A stretch of DNA of 64,000 nt from an uncultured Acidimicrobiia bacterium (lineage in GTDB: Bacteria; Actinomycetota; Acidimicrobiia; Spongiisociales; Spongiisociaceae), in NCBI GenBank assembly GCA_964516495.1, contig CAZEZF010000002.1, forward strand, positions 1,231-65,230. Reading direction: 5' to 3'. Below the pieces are notes generated by a model. The model saw only the letters and a program-made list of their open reading frames with translations, was not told where the DNA came from and did not search any database. The translations under genes and the position numbers were made by a program. This document shows positions 2,268-57,805 of the stretch, piece by piece (the stretch's first letter is position 1; every line of letters begins with the position of its first letter).

Positions 2268-2806
2268 TTGATGCATCGGTTCAGCAAGCGTGACCGCCCG
2301 ACTGGTCAACCACCTACCCGAACGGCGCTTTAGGGTTCTCGGGTGAGCGCTGCCTTCAGATGGACTTGCATCGGCTGACGTGCCGCCTCCATGTGCAGTC
2401 GGTAGGTCATGGCGTTGTCTTTGACTTCAATAATCCTTCTTACACGGGATACTTCGACTGCGGTAGCGGAAAGTCCCACCAGACTGGTTTGGAAATCGAT
2501 CCGGTGGTCTTGCACGACGCCCGTGTGGACTTCGACGATTCCGGTCGGTTGGCTTATGACCAACTCGACAACACTTTTGGAAACGGGCCTGATGTAGCCG
2601 GTTTCGGAATGCAAAGGCTCTTGTTCGGCGCCTAGACGGTGGGTTGTCTGCCGGTAGATAATGAAAGGTTTACCGGGTCCAGGTGTGTATGTAGCTGTTT
2701 CTGTATATGCGAACGCGTCGATGGTAGGGTAGCGCCCCTCCCCGGCGCCCCTCCAGACTCCGAGGAGGAACTCCAGAGGGGCGAGTGCGGGATGTAGGTC
2801 GTGCAT

Positions 2807-3451
2807 CTAACCGGTTGGGATCTCGCAGGTCACCCCCGTACCCCGAAGCCCGCAGTATCCATTGGGGTTCTTGGCCAGGTACTGCTGGTGATAGTCCTCG
2901 GCGTAGTAGAACTCGGGCGCATCTCGGATCTCGGTTGTGACCGGTCCGATGCCTGTTGCCATCAAGTCCCGCTCGTACGCGGCCTTGCTGGCTTCAGCCA
3001 GTTCCCGTTGGGCCGGGGTCGTCCAGTAGATGGCCGACCGGTACTGGGTGCCTCGGTCGTTTCCCTGTCGCATACCCTGGGTGGGGTTGTGCTCCTCCCA
3101 GAACCTTTTCAGCAATTCTCCGTACGAGATTACGTCGGGGTCATAGGCGACCAGCACCGCCTCGGTGTGACCGGTGCGTCCGCTGCAAACCTCGTAGTAG
3201 GTAGGGTTGGCCGTCATCCCTCCCTGATAGCCCACCGCGGTGGTATAGACACCCGGAATCTGCCAATAGATTCGCTCCACCCCCCAGAAGCAGCCCATAC
3301 CGAAGTATGCAATCTCCAGATTTGTAGGGAACGGAGGAGTGATGGGTCGCCCATGGACGAAATGTGGTCTTGCCTCCAGAACACCGGTTGTTCTGCCCGC
3401 CGGCGCCGTATCGGCCGTCGGTAATACGTCTTTTCTACCTCGACCGAACAT
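2807..3451 (-). CDS. msrA: Peptide methionine sulfoxide reductase MsrA
   Basis: GCFWG active-site motif and overall MsrA length/conservation. Confidence 0.85.
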
Positions 3452-3580
3452 ATGTATTCCTTTCTGTCGTCTACCCTTGATAACACTATCGCCGTGTTTA
3501 TGTTCCCGAAAGCTGTGCAGATCCGGTAACCGGTTAGCCTGGGGTCAGCATCAGCGAAAGCAGCGGAGGCGTATCTCCAA

Positions 3581-4426
3581 ATGAGGGTCGGCGCGAACAT
3601 ATTCCTGACTGACATGTCCATCGAACCTGTTCAACTCGGGGAGGAGCTCGAGTCACGTGGATTCGAGTCCTTATGGGTGGCGGAGCACAGCCACATTCCT
3701 ACCAGCCGGAAGACGCCGTGGGGAGGGAGGAAGAACGCCCCGCCGCTTCCGGAGGAGTATTGGCGAACCCATGACTGTTTTGTGGCGTTGTCTGCGGTGG
3801 CGGCCACTACCGACCGTTTGAAGGTCGGTACGGGCATCACCCTGGTTGCACAGCATGATCCGATCTGGTTGGCCAAGCAGGTGGCATCCCTTGATGTGAT
3901 ATCCAAAGGCCGGTTCGAGTTCGGGATCGGATTCGGTTGGAACCGGGAGGAGATGCGCAACCACGGTGTGGACCCGGCCACGAGACACCAGCTGGTGGCG
4001 GAAAAGATCGGCCTGATGAAGGCCCTCTGGACCAAGGAGCGAGCCTCCTATGACGGCGACTTGGTGACTCTGAAGGAGAGTTGGGCTTGGCCCAAACCGA
4101 TACAAAAGCCGCATCCACCCATCTTCATGGGGAGCAGCGGAGGTCCTAAGGCTTTTGCAGCCACAGCGGCTTACTGTGATGGGTGGTTACCGGTGCGACC
4201 GGGAAACCTGGCCGAAGGGATCACCACCTTGCACGGCTATCTGGAGCGGGCCGGAAGAGATCCTTCGGAACTGGAGATTGCGGTTTACAACGCCGCGCCC
4301 GATCCCGACGCTTGGAAGACGTGGGAGCGACTAGGAGTTTCCCGTGTCATGATAGGACTTCCGCATGCTCCCGCCGAGGTGATTGTCCCGTTACTTGACG
4401 AGTATCAACACCTGATCGAGGTTTGA
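3581..4426 (+). CDS. LLM-class (luciferase-like) flavin/F420-dependent oxidoreductase
   Basis: ESLWVAEH..., TIM-barrel LLM family signature pattern, 281 aa. Confidence 0.65.
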   Translation: MRVGANIFLTDMSIEPVQLGEELESRGFESLWVAEHSHIPTSRKTPWGGRKNAPPLPEEYWRTHDCFVALSAVAATTDRLKVGTGITLVAQHDPIWLAKQVASLDVISKGRFEFGIGFGWNREEMRNHGVDPATRHQLVAEKIGLMKALWTKERASYDGDLVTLKESWAWPKPIQKPHPPIFMGSSGGPKAFAATAAYCDGWLPVRPGNLAEGITTLHGYLERAGRDPSELEIAVYNAAPDPDAWKTWERLGVSRVMIGLPHAPAEVIVPLLDEYQHLIEV

Positions 4427-51229: not shown

Positions 51230-52356
51230 ATCGTCACGATGCCGCGCCGCCCGCCAGTCCGTTCCAGGGCGTGGAGCAGTTTGATTACCAGGATGGCCCC
51301 GGTGGCGCCCACGGGATGCCCCAATGCGATAGCGCCGCCGGAGATGTTGGTCTTGTCGGGATCCAGGTCCGCGTCCCTGATCACGGCTACCGCTTGGGCG
51401 GCGAACGCCTCGTTGAGTTCCACCAGATCTATATCGTCGAGGGTCAAACCCGCCTTGTCGAGCACCTTGGGGATAGCGAGAGCCGGAGCGTATCCCATCA
51501 CCTCAGGATCGATACCGCTCACCGCCCAGTCAACCAGCCGCAACCGCGCGTCGGCGCCTCTGGCATGAGCCGATTTCTCGCTCATAAGCACCAACGAAGC
51601 AGCCCCGTCGTTGATCCCGGACGAGTTACCCGCGGTAACGGTGCCGTCTTTCACGAACACCGGACGCAGCCGGGCGAGGCTCGCCTCGGTCGTGGCCGGC
51701 CTCGGGTGCTCATCAACCATGAACGGCTCCTGCCGGGGTACGTCTACCGCGACGATCTGATCCTCGAAGTGGCCCTCCTTGATAGCGATAGCGGCGCGGT
51801 GTTGACTTTCGGCCGCGAACCGGTCCTGTTCACGGCGGTTTACGTTGTAGCGTTCGGCCACTCGCTCCGCCGTTACACCCATCGGGTAGTCGCCGAACGG
51901 ATCTGTTACCAGCGAAAGAGTGCCGTCCACCAACTTGCGATCACCCAGCCTCCAACCGTTGCGAGCCTTGAAGTCGAGGAACGGCTGGCTGCTCATGTTC
52001 TCGTTGCCCCCGGCGACCACGATGTCGGCGTCTCCCAGCATGATCTGCTGGGCGCCGGTGATGATCGCCTGAAGTCCGGAGGAGCACAGGCGGTTGACGT
52101 TCATGGCGGTGGTCGAGGAGGGAAGGCCGGCCTCGAGAGCACAACGCCGGGCGTTGTAGGCGTCAGGGCCGACTTGGCCGATCTGACCCATAACCACCTC
52201 GTCGACCTCGCCGGTTTCCACCCCGGCCCGCTGCAACGACTCCTTGACGGTGACAGCGCCGAGTTTGTATGAGTCGACCCTGCTGAGAGAGCCGCCGTAG
52301 GCGCCTATCGCGGTACGCGCCGCCCCGACCACAACTACCGGATTCACATTTACCAT
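51181..52356 (-). CDS. Acetyl-CoA C-acyltransferase (thiolase)
   Basis: Active-site NVNRLCSSGLQAI, C-terminal GHPVGATGA, CIGGGQG. Confidence 0.85.
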   Translation of the reverse strand: MVNVNPVVVVGAARTAIGAYGGSLSRVDSYKLGAVTVKESLQRAGVETGEVDEVVMGQIGQVGPDAYNARRCALEAGLPSSTTAMNVNRLCSSGLQAIITGAQQIMLGDADIVVAGGNENMSSQPFLDFKARNGWRLGDRKLVDGTLSLVTDPFGDYPMGVTAERVAERYNVNRREQDRFAAESQHRAAIAIKEGHFEDQIVAVDVPRQEPFMVDEHPRPATTEASLARLRPVFVKDGTVTAGNSSGINDGAASLVLMSEKSAHARGADARLRLVDWAVSGIDPEVMGYAPALAIPKVLDKAGLTLDDIDLVELNEAFAAQAVAVIRDADLDPDKTNISGGAIALGHPVGATGAILVIKLLHALERTGGRRGIVTMCIGGGQGLAAIFERP

Positions 52357-52624
52357 GTCCGTTCCTTTGTATAACGGTGACTGCCCGAACGCAGGTCCCT
52401 TCTCCGGCCAAACCCGCCAGGTACGACCGACTCTCCATCCTAACCCTTTCCGTGTCCTCAACTACCACAGAAAGAGTCCCGGTTCCAGATAGGACCCTAG
52501 GGTGAACTCGGGCGATCGCCGTGGTTGAGACGTGGTTTTGGCGTGAGAGCATGTACCACATATGAACCGAAACCCGCGGGAGTTCGTATCTATGATGCAA
52601 ACGAGACTAGACATTCTTAACCCG

Positions 52625-52643
52625 TATCTCTAGAATAGAGATA
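52625..52643 (+). promoter_or_regulatory. Perfect palindrome TATCTCTA-gaa-TAGAGATA abutting the ATG of the 52643 gene (candidate autoregulatory operator)
   Basis: 8-bp arms, 3-bp spacer, overlaps start codon. Confidence 0.45.
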
Positions 52644-53182
52644 TGGAGATAGTTAAGCTATTTTCAGGGGCGATAAGTGGGGCAGACTTCGCGGATGATC
52701 CACACTCGGTCAAGTACATGGGCGAGTTGGATCGACACTCCGAAGCCTTCCACCGTCTCTTTGAGCTACTCAATGATCCTGCTAACGAGCAACGCCTCGT
52801 CGATGCCGAGACCCATGATCTGCCGGCCTTGGCCGGCATCGTCCGGTTCGTCGAGGAGGAACCGGCCATCAGGTATGTGCTGTCGCGCGGGCGATCAAGT
52901 CTTCGATTTCGCCAGGCGGTCGGAGTGGCGGTAAAGCTGAAAATGCAGAAGCTCGGCCGGCGTACGACAGGTCGAAAGGGCGTTGTGAAGAGTGCTGTGT
53001 ATTTCACAAGGGCTGAGCGCTATATCGCCGATCCCGACGCCGCTGCTAGTTCCGCGTCAAGTGCGCTTGAGGCACTTGACGCGGTGGCAAGCATGGGCGA
53101 TGAGACGGAACGCCTCCAGACCGGGCGTGAGCTGATGGAGGCCCTGGCGGCGACTCGGCGGAGCGCGGGTCGTCCTTTCTGA
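52643..53182 (+). CDS. Hypothetical protein (179 aa), first gene of a pair with a PIN gene
   Basis: No recognisable domain; stop 3 nt before the GTG of the PIN frame. Confidence 0.35.
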   Translation: MEIVKLFSGAISGADFADDPHSVKYMGELDRHSEAFHRLFELLNDPANEQRLVDAETHDLPALAGIVRFVEEEPAIRYVLSRGRSSLRFRQAVGVAVKLKMQKLGRRTTGRKGVVKSAVYFTRAERYIADPDAAASSASSALEALDAVASMGDETERLQTGRELMEALAATRRSAGRPF

Positions 53183-53184
53183 GG

Positions 53185-53632
53185 TGTTGATACTGCTTGA
53201 CAGCGGTCCGCTGGGGCTTCTTAGCAACCCGACTGTCCGTGGGTCGGGACGCGATGCCCGCGTATGGGCGCGGAACCACCTTGTATCCGGCGCGCTTCTC
53301 ATAGTCCCCGAGATAGCCGACTACGAGTACGCCGTGAGCTGATCAGGGCTGGAAAGCAGATGGGCGTGGCGCGACTCGACGAGTTGTGTGAAAGTTTCGG
53401 TTATCACCCCCTCTCAACCGCGATCATGCGCGATGCAGCGTGGCTGTGGGCTCGGGCTCGTAACCAGGGTTACCCTACGGCTCATGACGCGGCGCTTGAT
53501 GGCGACGTCCTCTTGGCAGCGCAAGCCCGCCGCCTGAAGGCCGAACAGCCTACCGAGACCGTCGTAGTGGCAACTACGAACCCCTCCCACCTAAGGCGGT
53601 ATGTCGATGCCAGGGTCTGGCGCCAGGTGTGA
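53185..53632 (+). pseudogene. PIN-domain (VapC-like) gene with a frameshift near 53330
   Basis: VLILLDSGPLGLLSNP...VPEIADYEY in one frame, continuing RRELIRAGKQ...DAALDGDVLLAAQA...VVVATTNPSHLRRYV in track ORF 53264..53632. Confidence 0.5.
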
Positions 53633-53806
53633 GGCGGAGGCGGACTGTAGTCGCAGGAGTAGGGCTTCCCGGAGAATCAGTAGAGACCTCGGTGTCTCAG
53701 GAGACGCAGGTAGGTTTCGATACTCCCGCTGGGAGCGGCTTCAAATCCCGGCCCGTGACCGTGCGTCCGGCGCCTCGGTAAAGCCCAGAAGTGGTGAACC
53801 CCCATC

Positions 53807-53909
53807 AGGAGGGTGCCGGGAAACCCCCGGCTTGGCCCGACATCCGATGGTAAACTCCCTGGTCAGCGGACGGAGGGCCAATCTAATCACCCGTTTTCAG
53901 CACCCTCCT
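53807..53909 (-). repeat. Repeat family C copy 1: about 100-nt structured element closed by GGAGGGUGC/GCACCCUCC pairing, starting at the stop codon of the deaminase gene
   Basis: About 80 percent identical to 63083..63181; internal hairpins (ccggggguuucccgg etc.). Confidence 0.55.
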
Positions 53910-54900
53910 AGGAACTCCAGTATTCCTGCTGGATGGTGGAGGATTCGGCGACCAGGTGGGGTCCCCTCACCTCTATATGGCGCTGACCGGTACCCAGGAT
54001 CTCGCGGCAACCTACACCGCGCATGGTCGGGTTGAGGGGGTTGGCGCCGGTGTATTCCAACAGGTGGTGTTCGCTCATGCCGTACACCAGCCGGTTGAGG
54101 CCGCCCCAGTACATGGATCCGCTGCACATGGCGCAGGGTTCGCAGCTGGTGTAGAGAGTGGCGTCCGCGATCTGTTCGGAAGTGAGTTGGTCCACCGCCA
54201 TTCGCATCAGGTTGGTCTCGGCGTGGTTGAGAGGGCTTTTGCCGGTGATGTCGGAGTTCTCCGCCTCAAGGAGGATGTTTCCATCCGGGTCGGCCAGCAG
54301 CGCCCCGAAAGGCAGGTTTCCGTTGGCCACGGAGCGTTCCGCGACCTTGATCGCCCTCCGCAGCAGTCGCTCATCCATCTCGCTCAGGTCGCCGGTTACC
54401 GGTCGGGGGCCGCCTTCGGCGAAGAAATCGATGTGTACCGCCGACGCCTCCTCGATAAGGTGTGGTCCGCTCACCTCTATATGGCGCTGACCGCTGTCGA
54501 AGATGTTGCGACATCCCACGCCCCGCATCGTGGCCGTGCCGGGATCGCCTCCGGTTATTTCGAGAAGGTCCAACTCGCTCATGGCATAGACCATGCGGTT
54601 GAGCCCGCCCCAGTACATGGCGCCCGAGCACATGGCGCAGGGTTCGCAGCTGGTGTAAAGGGTGGCCTCGGCGATCTGTTCCGGGGTGAGGGTGGTAACC
54701 GCCAGGTTCATGAGGTTGGTCTCCGCATGGTTGAGCGTGTTGCGCCCGGTTACCCCGGTGTTCTCCGCCTCGAGCAGGATGTTTCCGTCACGGTCGGCCA
54801 TGATCGCCCCAAAGGGCATGTTCCCGTTGGATACCGATCTGGCCGAAACCTCGATCGCCTTTCGCAGGAGCCGTTCGTCATGTGAGCTGAGTACTGTCAT
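53908..54900 (-). CDS. Tandem-domain nucleoside/nucleotide deaminase (two CDA-fold TadA/guanine-deaminase-like domains)
   Basis: HAETNLM ... CEPCAMCSG zinc motifs present twice; the two halves are about 75 percent identical (504-bp internal tandem repeat). Confidence 0.7.
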   Translation of the reverse strand: MTVLSSHDERLLRKAIEVSARSVSNGNMPFGAIMADRDGNILLEAENTGVTGRNTLNHAETNLMNLAVTTLTPEQIAEATLYTSCEPCAMCSGAMYWGGLNRMVYAMSELDLLEITGGDPGTATMRGVGCRNIFDSGQRHIEVSGPHLIEEASAVHIDFFAEGGPRPVTGDLSEMDERLLRRAIKVAERSVANGNLPFGALLADPDGNILLEAENSDITGKSPLNHAETNLMRMAVDQLTSEQIADATLYTSCEPCAMCSGSMYWGGLNRLVYGMSEHHLLEYTGANPLNPTMRGVGCREILGTGQRHIEVRGPHLVAESSTIQQEYWSS

Positions 54901-55156: not shown

Positions 55157-56323
55157 TTATGTTGCTCGACCTACCTCACTCACCAGGTCAAGTAGCGGTA
55201 CAGCCTCCGTGTCCGGGGTGACCCGGTAGCGCTCCTCTCCGGGATAGACGACAAACCTGGCTTCCGGTTGCACATCGGTACAGCCGCTGTGGAAGCCTTT
55301 GCGGGGCCGGGGCGTAAGGCTCCTTTTCGCTTCTATCGCCCACGGGCGATGGCCGGGCAAAGTGATGATCAGGTCGATCTCCGCTCCGCCCGACGATCGG
55401 TAGTAGCTCGCCTCGCTTCCGTCCGGAAGCCGAGATATGAGGGTTTCGATGACAAAACCCTCCCAACTTGCCCCGACCACCGGATGCCCTAGTAGGTCTT
55501 CCTTCGAGACAAGGCCCAGCAGAGCATGCACGATCCCGCTGTCACGGACATAGACTCTCGGGGACTTGACAAGACGCTTGCCGACATTCTTACGCCATGG
55601 CGGTAGGCGCCGTACCAGCAGCAGGTCCACCATAAGGTCCAGGTAGCGGGAGACGGTCTTGCCGTCCACGCCGAGCCCGCGCGCGAGGGCGGATGCGTTG
55701 AGTGGACCTCCTTGGGAGTGGGCCAGCATCACCCAGAATCGCCGGAGGGTTTCGGCGGGTATACGGGGGCCGAACTGGGGGATGTCGCGCTCGATATAGG
55801 TCCGGATGAAGTTCAGTCGCCAGCGAAAGCTCCTGCGGTCATCGGCGGCCAGGAAGCTGTCGGGAAAGCCGCCTCGCACCCAAATTGAATCCCGTTCGCT
55901 TGCATCAACCTCTGACACGTCCAGCGGACCGAGTTCAAGGTAGGCGATTCGTCCGGCCAGGCTTTCACCTGACTGTTGGAGCAGATCCATCGAGGCCGAC
56001 CCCAGCAGCAGAAACCGTCTCACTCCCCGGCCGCTTCGTCTTCCCTGATCTATGATGCCGCGCAGGGCTTGAAACAGGCCTGGGGTTCTATGCACCTCAT
56101 CCAGGATCACCAGCCTGTGCTGATGGCCTGCCAGATAGAGTTCGGGTTCGGATAGCTTGGCGTGGTCGGATGGTGATTCCAGGTCGAGATAGACGGAGTC
56201 GATCGCGTCGGCGATCTGCCAGGCCAGGGTGGTCTTCCCCACCTGCCGGGGTCCGATCAAGGCGACAGCAGGGTATTCGGATAGCAGTTCATGCAAGTGT
56301 GGGAGCAGGCGGCGGGGAATCAT
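55157..56323 (-). CDS. COG1373-type AAA+ ATPase (AAA_14 + DUF4143), second copy in window
   Basis: Walker A GPRQVGKTT, Walker B VILDEVH, DUF4143-like C-terminus. Confidence 0.6.
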   Translation of the reverse strand: MIPRRLLPHLHELLSEYPAVALIGPRQVGKTTLAWQIADAIDSVYLDLESPSDHAKLSEPELYLAGHQHRLVILDEVHRTPGLFQALRGIIDQGRRSGRGVRRFLLLGSASMDLLQQSGESLAGRIAYLELGPLDVSEVDASERDSIWVRGGFPDSFLAADDRRSFRWRLNFIRTYIERDIPQFGPRIPAETLRRFWVMLAHSQGGPLNASALARGLGVDGKTVSRYLDLMVDLLLVRRLPPWRKNVGKRLVKSPRVYVRDSGIVHALLGLVSKEDLLGHPVVGASWEGFVIETLISRLPDGSEASYYRSSGGAEIDLIITLPGHRPWAIEAKRSLTPRPRKGFHSGCTDVQPEARFVVYPGEERYRVTPDTEAVPLLDLVSEVGRAT

Positions 56324-56482: not shown

Positions 56483-57286
56483 TTATGGGGCTTGACCCGC
56501 TGTTGGTGTCTGGTTCAGGTGCATCTTGCGCAGGGAGTGGCGAACCAGATCCTGGGCGGACCTGGCGCTGATGTCCAGGAATCCATCCGGCCAGCCTTCC
56601 GAAAGGCCGCCGTACTCGTTTATCTCCGACTTCCGGTAAGTCGTGATGCCGTCACTCTTCTCCGCGAATAGGAGGGTGACCAGTTCCCTGGTCGTATCGG
56701 TCTCATCTGACGCCACCTGGGTCCGCAGTTGATTGACAAGATGGTCGCTGTGGGTCTCCACGATTATCTGGCGGCCCGCTCGAACGAAAGCCAGGAGGAA
56801 GTCCGCAAGTCGCTTCTGTAGCGCCGGGTGAAGGTGTAACTCCGGCTGCTCGAGTATCAACAGATCCGCCGGAATACTCAACAAGCACTGCAAGATGACC
56901 GGCAGCACCTGACTAACTCCTGTACCGACCGCCGAAAGGTAGACGGGCCTTGGTGCATCGGATACGTGGACGCTCAGAGCCCGCTGTCCATAGCGATCCC
57001 GCACCTCCACGTCCACCGCTTCCGCTATACCGAACCACCGGAGCCACTGGTCCATTGCATCCCGAAACGGAACCAGATCCTCATGACCGGTGGGTAGCGG
57101 GACGTTAACCCACCGATCACTTGATCCATCCAGCACTATGGCCGCGTTCTCGCCGCGGGTACCGACATGTGTATTTTCCAGCCGAGTCATAGACGCAGGT
57201 CCTTCCTGTGGAGATACCCGCACTGGACCTAGATAGTGAAGCCTCGAATCAAGTAGTCCGTCGGACGCAGCCTTCATCCATAACAA
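56483..57286 (-). pseudogene. SMC/ABC-like AAA ATPase (AAA_21 + DUF3696-like) lacking its N-terminal Walker A region
   Basis: LHYLGP, Walker B LLILEQPELHLHP, H-loop ETHSDHL present; P-loop absent; MITE copy 5 lies immediately upstream. Confidence 0.5.
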
Positions 57287-57604
57287 TGGGTGGTCCTCCT
57301 CCGAGGCATTTTGTTTGTCCTAAACGTCGATCAACCAGCATCCGGCGTCTTCGGCAACCCGGATCATGCTGTCTCTGGTTCTCTCATACACATAGGAGGC
57401 GGAGACCGTTTGATGGTCTGGGCGTATCTTTAGTTCTCCGGCCTCGGTCTTTCGACCCGACTCCAACCCATCACCCGTTGCTTCGACACCGAAGTTCCCT
57501 GGAAGCGTGAGCGTAGTGAGCGCCCCTTCTATCAGAGGCCAGAAGGACTCGTAGTGGGCATGACCTAGTGTCCCGAATGTCTCGACCCAGTTGTCGACCC
57601 TTAA

Positions 57605-57805
57605 CCCTGATTCTTCATGCCCCAGACACACCGACCTCAAAAAGGCCATGTCAAGCGCAGCACCGTGGGGCGTCCCGGCGTTCACCTCAGGGTGAAGGGT
57701 AACACCCCAGCCAGGCGGGGCCACCAAGCGGCTATCTTCCCAGGTCAGAGAGTTTATTGCATCTTTCTCGGCTACCCAATCAAACCCCTGCATGAAAAAT
57801 TGGGG
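57605..57805 (-). mobile_element. MITE family A copy 5 (201 bp), perfect TTAA target duplication (57601-57604 / 57806-57809)
   Basis: Full-length, both TIRs. Confidence 0.8.

Follow-up and report, generated by a model that had tools for sequence, protein, structure and literature searches.

The window analysed here is a stretch of 64,000 nucleotides from an uncultured Acidimicrobiia bacterium (GenBank assembly GCA_964516495.1, contig CAZEZF010000002.1). We studied the locus at window positions 52600-53640, where two co-oriented genes lie head to tail: an intact open reading frame (ORF) of 179 codons, hereafter ORF-A, and a frameshifted gene for a VapC-like protein of the PIN family. A first inspection of the sequence (the original prediction) had proposed a toxin-antitoxin (TA) type of bicistron at this place, fronted by a palindrome resembling an operator, and all features that it had named were re-examined. 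The features of the locus are collected in Table 1. ORF-A ends with the TGA codon at 53180-53182 and, after 1 nt, the PIN gene starts with the GTG at 53184; the spacing is therefore 1 nt, where 3 nt had originally been read.

Table 1. Features of the ORF-A/PIN locus (window coordinates)
Feature	Position	Strand	Remarks
-35 hexamer TAGACA	52608..52613	+	with the next two bases (TAGACATT, 52608-52615) forms the left arm of the family repeat
TATCTCTA	52625..52632	+	lies where relatives have the right arm of the family repeat, 9 nt beyond the left one; left arm of the originally noted palindrome
8-3-8 palindrome TATCTCTAgaaTAGAGATA (TATCTCTA-gaa-TAGAGATA)	52625..52643	.	originally noted palindrome; covers the -10 hexamer, the predicted +1 and the A of the ATG
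-10 hexamer TAGAAT	52631..52636	+	6 nt upstream of the ATG
ORF-A (179-aa antitoxin gene, intact)	52643..53182	+	ORF call; identical over the whole gene in the independent assembly L042
ORF-A N-domain (aa ~8-130)	52664..53032	+	acidic helical part, basic long helix, beta-hairpin; matches no known family
ORF-A C-terminal tail (aa 135-179)	53045..53179	+	two helices ending in GRPF; putative PIN-binding segment
13-nt perfect inverted repeat CCGCGTCAAGTGC-N7-GCACTTGACGCGG	53052..53084		inside ORF-A; codons for ASSALEALDA, start of the tail
PIN gene, 5' part	53184..53342	+	GTG start, 48 ancestral codons (D6, E43, D46, E48), 4 out-of-frame codons, premature TGA
Frameshift site	53325..53328	+	ancestral GAA GTA reads GAGTA; one A lost after 53326
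PIN gene, 3' part, ancestral frame	53327..53632	+	V49 to V149 plus TGA; bears D106, D108, T131, N133

The ORF-A/PIN pair and the decay of its toxin gene

Joining the two frames of the PIN gene gives a protein of 149 residues, whose first frame begins with MLILLDSGPLG. The reconstructed window protein matches the Pfam PIN model at E=0.058 only, below the Pfam threshold, and a search of the PDB sequence profiles with the PIN alignment returned nothing at E<=1. Among its aligned homologues, 41 of 59 match PF01850 (Pfam PIN) at E<0.01, with a best E value of 1.5e-6. In addition, an AlphaFold2 model of the protein has a predicted local distance difference test (pLDDT) score of 92.5, and the top 40 PDB structures retrieved with it by Foldseek are all VapC or PIN proteins (e.g. 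4chg, 3zvk, 6nkl and 3tnd; TM 0.62-0.78, with 0.78 the highest score). The best matches include VapBC15, VapBC2 of R. felis, VapBC-1 of H. influenzae and Shigella VapC. The VapC-like identity given in the original prediction is thus upheld by both profile matches and fold comparison. The family is large: 4536 homologues were collected, mostly of exactly 149 residues, and some of them are named VapC-family toxins by NCBI, which has no NCBIfam model for this subfamily. D6, E43, D46, E48, D106, D108, T131 and N133 are invariant in the family alignment.

The homologues of ORF-A (n=188) are without exception unnamed proteins, and all come from Acidimicrobiia, with hosts that include Microthrix, Poriferisodalis, Poriferisocius and Aldehydirespiratoraceae. 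In 37 of the 41 loci that were fetched, a homologous PIN gene lies directly downstream of the ORF-A homologue, typically again after a gap of 1 nt. Intact PIN partners in strict synteny are therefore found in many genomes, in addition to an intact allele of the window gene itself, and the proposed TA-type bicistron is borne out by the relatives. Judged by this strict synteny, with 188 homologues on one side and 4536 on the other, the two-gene module is far beyond chance.

The neighbourhood of the cassette differs from genome to genome. It is flanked by MIP channels and an ABC-2 permease in Microthrix, by a CAP/RCC1 protein and a PALP enzyme in Poriferisodalis, and by a thiolase and a tandem deaminase in the window. 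On this comparison of gene order, the ORF-A/PIN pair is a conserved and movable module. The promoter and the beginning of ORF-A have a G+C content of 0.52-0.55, lower than the ~0.63 of their surroundings. A tblastn search with ORF-A against 72,556 plasmids gave no match, and the PIN protein had only four matches in the plasmid set, all on cyanobacterial plasmids. A possible second decayed cassette was observed at positions 2980-3124 of another contig (L035), where an ORF-A homologue is broken after ~48 codons; no PIN homologue was detected downstream of it on that contig.

The single frameshift announced for the PIN gene is present and consists of one missing A. After 48 correct codons, the window copy runs out of frame and meets a stop at 53340-53342, while the ancestral TGA stands at 53630-53632. 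The truncated product, of 52 residues, is without D106, D108 and N133, so that the acidic set of the active site is incomplete; as read from its sequence, this copy is a pseudogene of a PIN family member. An intact allele is carried by a contig from a sibling sample (L129, SRR8304784), which aligns to window positions 52713-53861 (1149 bases) with one single-nucleotide polymorphism and one extra base. This contig reads GAC TAC GAA GTA where the window reads GAC TAC GAG TA. Because the two alleles differ there by exactly that base, the lesion is a single A missing after 53326. The protein encoded on L129 (P0389, 149 aa) clusters at 90% identity with the C-terminal fragment and is identical to the reconstructed PIN protein.

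The deletion allele was also recovered, with the same sequence through the lesion, from three Logan assemblies (L042, L043 and L044, from read sets SRR8304783, SRR8304785 and SRR22586457). With the deletion in three other assemblies and the intact allele in a fourth, the alleles point to a recent toxin loss that is still segregating in the population. Could the shift instead stem from faulty sequencing or assembly, or be programmed at the ribosome, such that the window toxin works? We consider this highly improbable. The allele with the extra base does exist in the sibling sample, and the indel sits in a short run of A (GAAG); however, the NCBI contig and three independently assembled read sets share the deletion, and errors of this kind are not typical of two-base runs. 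Programmed frameshifting was discarded, since no slippery heptamer of the X XXY YYZ form is found at C GAG TAC and the genes of all other family members run in one frame. We also observed that position 1 of L042 is window position 52643, exactly at the ATG and right after the palindrome, and that all three Logan contigs share their last base, near window position 53883. These shared ends probably reflect breaks in the assembly graph rather than biology.

Of 54 near-invariant columns in the family alignment, the window ORF-A deviates at 4 (family median 1), and the deviations include A22S, W106R and G117S. Relaxed selection on ORF-A after the loss of the toxin was considered and rejected, as L129 already has three of the four deviant residues (A22S is outside the contig). 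Since this contig, with its intact toxin gene, spans ORF-A codons 25-179 without any mismatch to the window, the lineage-specific features of ORF-A in these codons predate toxin loss.

Architecture of the ORF-A protein

The original prediction had found no recognisable domain in the 179-residue protein, and scans of Pfam, NCBIfam, PADLOC and PHROGs agree: no significant match was obtained, and weak matches to RhiE_B and DUF6767 are scattered and below cut-off. A relationship became visible for the C-terminal part through the partners of other PIN proteins of the family. The PIN genes on cyanobacterial plasmids (47-51% identity) are preceded by genes for hypothetical proteins of 94-117 residues, and a scan of metagenomes with the PIN alignment gave 80 loci, nearly all with an upstream partner ending in LLxSW..D..EQRET..YL..ALDEDRLS.RKLFP. 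ORF-A residues 135-179 align with 32 such partner tails with an hhalign probability of 88.8% (E=2.5e-6, 45 columns) and with a single Nostoc sequence at E=1.8e-4. Like the partners, ORF-A thus has ...E(Q/R)xxTxxxLxxALxxxRxxxxRxF as its C-terminal motif, with the cognate PIN gene following directly.

These tail-type partners (Nostoc WP_237997114.1, Pseudanabaena WP_281010096.1 and many metagenome contigs) resemble ORF-A in having a homologous PIN partner (47-53% identity), a homologous tail whose T, L, AL, R and final F are spaced as in ORF-A, and a gene that lies immediately upstream of the PIN start or overlaps it. In contrast to ORF-A with its N-domain of 120 residues, they are 65-130 residues long, and their N-terminus is RHH-like, of the HTH_17 type or devoid of a domain. 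Over the set of partners, the N-termini indeed vary widely, with an excisionase-type HTH_17 (E=4e-8), weak RHH matches (CopG, MatP_C) and large regions of 330-370 residues without assignment; partners of 65-68 residues have no domain before the tail. From these alignments, ORF-A consists of a new N-domain and a standard, presumably toxin-binding tail; an exchangeable front before a constant tail is the classical build of modular type II antitoxins. The idea of a novel antitoxin class raised by the original prediction holds in part: the protein appears to be an atypical antitoxin with an undescribed N-terminal domain, but it is not wholly new, because its large size is explained by the fusion of this domain to the standard tail.

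The codons for the start of the tail contain a perfect 13-nt inverted repeat (Table 1), one of only two such repeats in the window, with an RNA folding free energy of -27.5 kcal/mol. A conserved RNA element was considered here and rejected: relatives have imperfect repeats at the same codons (8-10 of 11), without consistent covariation, and the repeat largely follows from a quasi-palindromic peptide, ASRALAALDA, of which it is probably a by-product. It may also have a role in mRNA stability or in the toxin:antitoxin ratio.

The AlphaFold model of ORF-A has a pLDDT of 86 overall and of more than 90 across residues 20-130. It comprises a helical region (residues 13-80), a long helix (83-103) and a long beta-hairpin (106-114 and 123-129), followed in the C-terminal part by a poorly conserved linker and by helices 131-149 and 154-174, and it ends in the conserved G-R-P-F. 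Residues 83-130 are the most conserved stretch of the protein and carry a net charge of +8.7 +/- 2.0 in the family and +11 in the window protein; acidic character is seen in residues 1-82 and in the tail. The N-domain gave no sign of a DNA-binding fold, and the ORF-A alignment retrieved from the PDB sequence profiles only a nucleoside-diphosphate kinase, at E about 0.5. In a Foldseek search with the ORF-A model, MarR-family proteins occupied 7 of the top 25 rows. ORF-A resembles MarR-type regulators in the order of its long helix, beta-hairpin ("wing") and two C-terminal helices and in a basic helix-hairpin; similarity to winged HTH (MarR) proteins did not reach significance, either in fold or in sequence.

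As to the modularity of the N-domain, an exhaustive profile search returned 305 clusters, 177 of them at E<=1e-10. Many are proteins of 120-135 residues confined to profile positions ~8-127. Where their loci were examined (L038 and L040 among them), such stand-alone N-domain proteins have neither the tail nor a PIN neighbour. One relative (P0275) has an insertion in the hairpin and the same tail as ORF-A. Another (P0315) is a fusion of the N-domain to DUF433 (PF04255, E=1.3e-17) and, a distant relative, is alone in having this domain; DUF433 is found neither in ORF-A nor in its 77 aligned homologues. The fusion gene lies at positions 2501-3289 of its contig (L127), and an ORF not called in the source (3282-3635) overlaps its stop by 8 nt and encodes a DUF5615/PIN_10 protein (E=2.8e-16). 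Hence, by sequence comparison, the N-domain is joined to two antitoxin modules that are unrelated to each other, each set against a different PIN-like nuclease. On a further contig (L128), a stand-alone N-domain protein of 124 residues (421-795) overlaps the start of a 279-residue protein (795-1634), which has no Pfam match and bears a PD-(D/E)xK-like motif, DIVLVGPDWLLVLEAKVY. The latter protein may be another effector paired with the N-domain. Neither the N-domain nor the tail-type antitoxins have curated Pfam or NCBIfam models, and our literature search found no paper describing the PIN subfamily, the tail-type antitoxins or the N-domain.

Promoter region and neighbouring genes

A promoter scan of positions 52300-54000 gave a single site of the sigma-70 type and close to consensus, TAGACA-17-TAGAAT, with 10 of 12 consensus matches. 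ORF-A has no Shine-Dalgarno sequence and, because the -10 box sits only 6 nt before the ATG, its mRNA is probably leaderless, starting at or beside the start codon. Leaderless transcripts are common among the TA operons of M. tuberculosis (PMC3898074, PMC8485053). The geometry of the window promoter is shared by ~25 homologous loci, in the form T(T/A)GACA-17-TA(A/T)nnT-6-start, and the -35 position of the relatives reads T(T/A)GACATC.

A start-anchored, ungapped comparison of 26 distinct promoters revealed a family inverted repeat, GACATC-N9-GATGTC (typical form TAGACATC-N9-GATGTCTA), which lies over the -35 and -10 elements and is found in 17 of the 26. Five promoters (L008, L009, L012, L013 and L052) have perfect repeat arms of 8-10 nt, as in TGTAGACATC-N9-GATGTCTACA of L008, and in some loci the repeat extends to a 21-bp palindrome, GACATCCGA-aaa-TCGGATGTC. 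Upstream of the genes for the N-domain-DUF433 fusion and the stand-alone protein on L127 and L128, only fragments of GACATC/GATGTC are seen, e.g. TAGACAT and TGTCTA.

Downstream of the cassette and convergent with the PIN gene, the minus strand (53908-54900) encodes a 330-residue protein with two tandem cytidine/dCMP deaminase domains, whose halves are clearly alike. Further on, an ATPase of the AAA_14+DUF4143 type (55157-56323) is adjoined by two minus-strand ORFs. One, of 267 residues (56483-57286), aligns with the AAA_21/AAA_15 (AbiEii/OLD-like ATPase) models over their C-terminal quarter only; the other, of 157 residues (57320-57793), lies just upstream of it and has no obvious similarity. 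Together they may represent a truncated or split defence-type ATPase gene. A tRNA-like att site at 53730-53760 (ggcttcaaatccc) was considered and rejected, as ARAGORN and Rfam are blank there. The Rfam scan of the window gave no RNA family, and the single tRNA is far from the locus.

Nature of the cassette and role of the N-domain

Type II antitoxins usually combine a small DNA-binding domain, of one of four or five known classes, with a toxin-binding tail. The window locus shares with VapBC systems, such as R. felis VapBC2 (Rickettsia felis, 3zvk), Shigella flexneri VapBC (3tnd) and M. tuberculosis VapBC15 (4chg), the antitoxin-to-toxin gene order and the tight coupling of the genes. Further likenesses are the PIN/VapC fold with its conserved acidic residues, a C-terminal segment of the antitoxin that appears devoted to the toxin, an inverted repeat on the promoter as candidate operator, and the varied neighbourhoods of the cassette. 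On the other hand, the antitoxin is 170-180 residues long here as compared to 70-90 in VapBC systems, its N-domain is none of the AbrB, RHH, Phd/YefM or HTH types (Pfam, NCBIfam, PDB), and the last conserved catalytic position is Asn (T131-x-N133) instead of Asp. Another PIN-associated antitoxin outside the four classical DNA-binding classes is VapB10 (COG2442/DUF433) of Synechocystis sp. PCC 6803, a validated antitoxin that neutralises VapC10 and binds its own promoter (PMC3834315). Unlike VapB10, ORF-A has no DUF433 and its PIN protein is of a different subfamily; moreover, VapB10 activates its operon, whereas repression is proposed for ORF-A.

We regard it as likely that the locus is a chromosomal VapBC-type type II TA cassette from an Acidimicrobiia-like actinobacterium, observed shortly after the inactivation of its toxin. 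In the proposed mechanism, the PIN protein would be translated by coupling to ORF-A, and the ORF-A tail would wrap around it and block the acidic pocket, as VapB tails do; from the tail alignment, we infer that this segment neutralises the PIN protein. The N-domain would replace the usual DNA-binding domain: as a dimer, it would bind the inverted repeat on the -35 and -10 elements via the basic helix and the beta-hairpin (residues 83-130) and thereby repress the operon. With the toxin truncated, the window copy would now be an orphan antitoxin or regulator gene.

Several observations weigh against parts of this scheme. At the positions of the family repeat, the window reads TAGACATT-N9-TATCTCTA, a degenerate version whose arms are complementary at 6/8 positions only, the right arm also matching the consensus arm (GATGTCTA) at 6/8. 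Part of the conserved repeat may reflect promoter elements, TTGACA being the complement of TGTCAA. Furthermore, the DUF433 to which the N-domain is fused in P0315 is a winged-helix DNA binder. Since that fusion partner already binds DNA, the N-domain need not be the DNA-binding part. Autoregulation by the antitoxin does not seem obligatory either, because the tail antitoxins of 65-68 residues appear to have no DNA-binding domain. The last two points favour an explanation that keeps the PIN TA pair and makes the N-domain an accessory sensing or regulatory domain that times toxin release in response to, e.g., a phage product, metabolite or protease adaptor; the repeat in the promoter would in that case be the target of a different factor, or incidental. 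Such a role would fit a domain that precedes two unrelated antitoxin modules, one of which brings its own winged-helix DNA binding, that occurs on its own with no toxin nearby (L038, L040), in which no DNA-binding fold was detected, and whose PIN subfamily includes domain-less tail antitoxins. We nevertheless hold it to be unlikely. The strongly conserved palindrome on the -35 and -10 elements is specific to loci of the ORF-A type, and ORF-A has no other candidate for a DNA-binding part. In addition, residues 83-130 are very basic and the most conserved of the protein, and the helix, the beta-hairpin and the C-terminal helices follow one another in winged-helix order. The chances that the N-domain binds DNA appear about evenly balanced. 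We suggest, tentatively and as the less probable case, that it is an undescribed portable TA module and not a plain operator binder, either a new nucleic-acid-binding fold or a trigger sensor that frees the nuclease.

The perfect 8-3-8 palindrome first noted at the ORF-A start is present, its last A being the A of the ATG. As an operator it fared less well, given that the repeat recurring over the 26 promoters is a different one and that the palindrome is in none of the 25 others, including those of the closest relatives (65-68% identity). Perfect 8-nt inverted repeats (loop of 0-10 nt) number 25 in the window, against 15.8 +/- 4.4 expected; for those with A+T-rich arms, 1 was observed against 0.87 expected over the 64 kb. 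Taken alone, the palindrome is no more than chance would give. Still, it could be the functional operator of ORF-A in this lineage, co-evolved with W106R and G117S, and would then block the -10 element and the start. It sits, perfect, exactly on the -10 and +1; its left arm is homologous to the right arm of the family repeat, and its new arm TAGAGATA (52636-52643) resembles the half-site TAGACATC at 6/8 positions. A module so very recently intact should also be under some form of control, yet its ancestral repeat is decayed, and W106R and G117S are departures from near-invariant residues in the putative DNA-contact region. On the other side, the arms are 3 nt apart here and 9 nt apart in the family, such that one dimer could not bind both alike, and part of the palindrome is the -10 hexamer itself. 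We find an operator role possible but doubtful; on sequence grounds, the palindrome is either a lineage-specific operator variant or a coincidence.

In practical terms, the outcome for the window is ordinary, a freshly inactivated TA cassette. Its interest rests on an undescribed, reusable N-domain and on a natural pair of alleles; the palindrome is of little interest. The large PIN/antitoxin subfamily to which the cassette belongs (about 4500 PIN homologues) is still without a model in the curated libraries. The coexisting intact and one-base-deleted alleles provide a natural snapshot of the decay of a chromosomal TA system, in which the toxin is lost first while the antitoxin and the promoter are intact. 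The front half of ORF-A appears swapped for a conserved domain that has no Pfam, NCBIfam or PDB relative and is found in three architectures and ~300 clusters of Actinomycetota. Overall, ORF-A offers a clean case of domain swapping in an antitoxin, and a candidate for a new DNA-binding or sensing fold.

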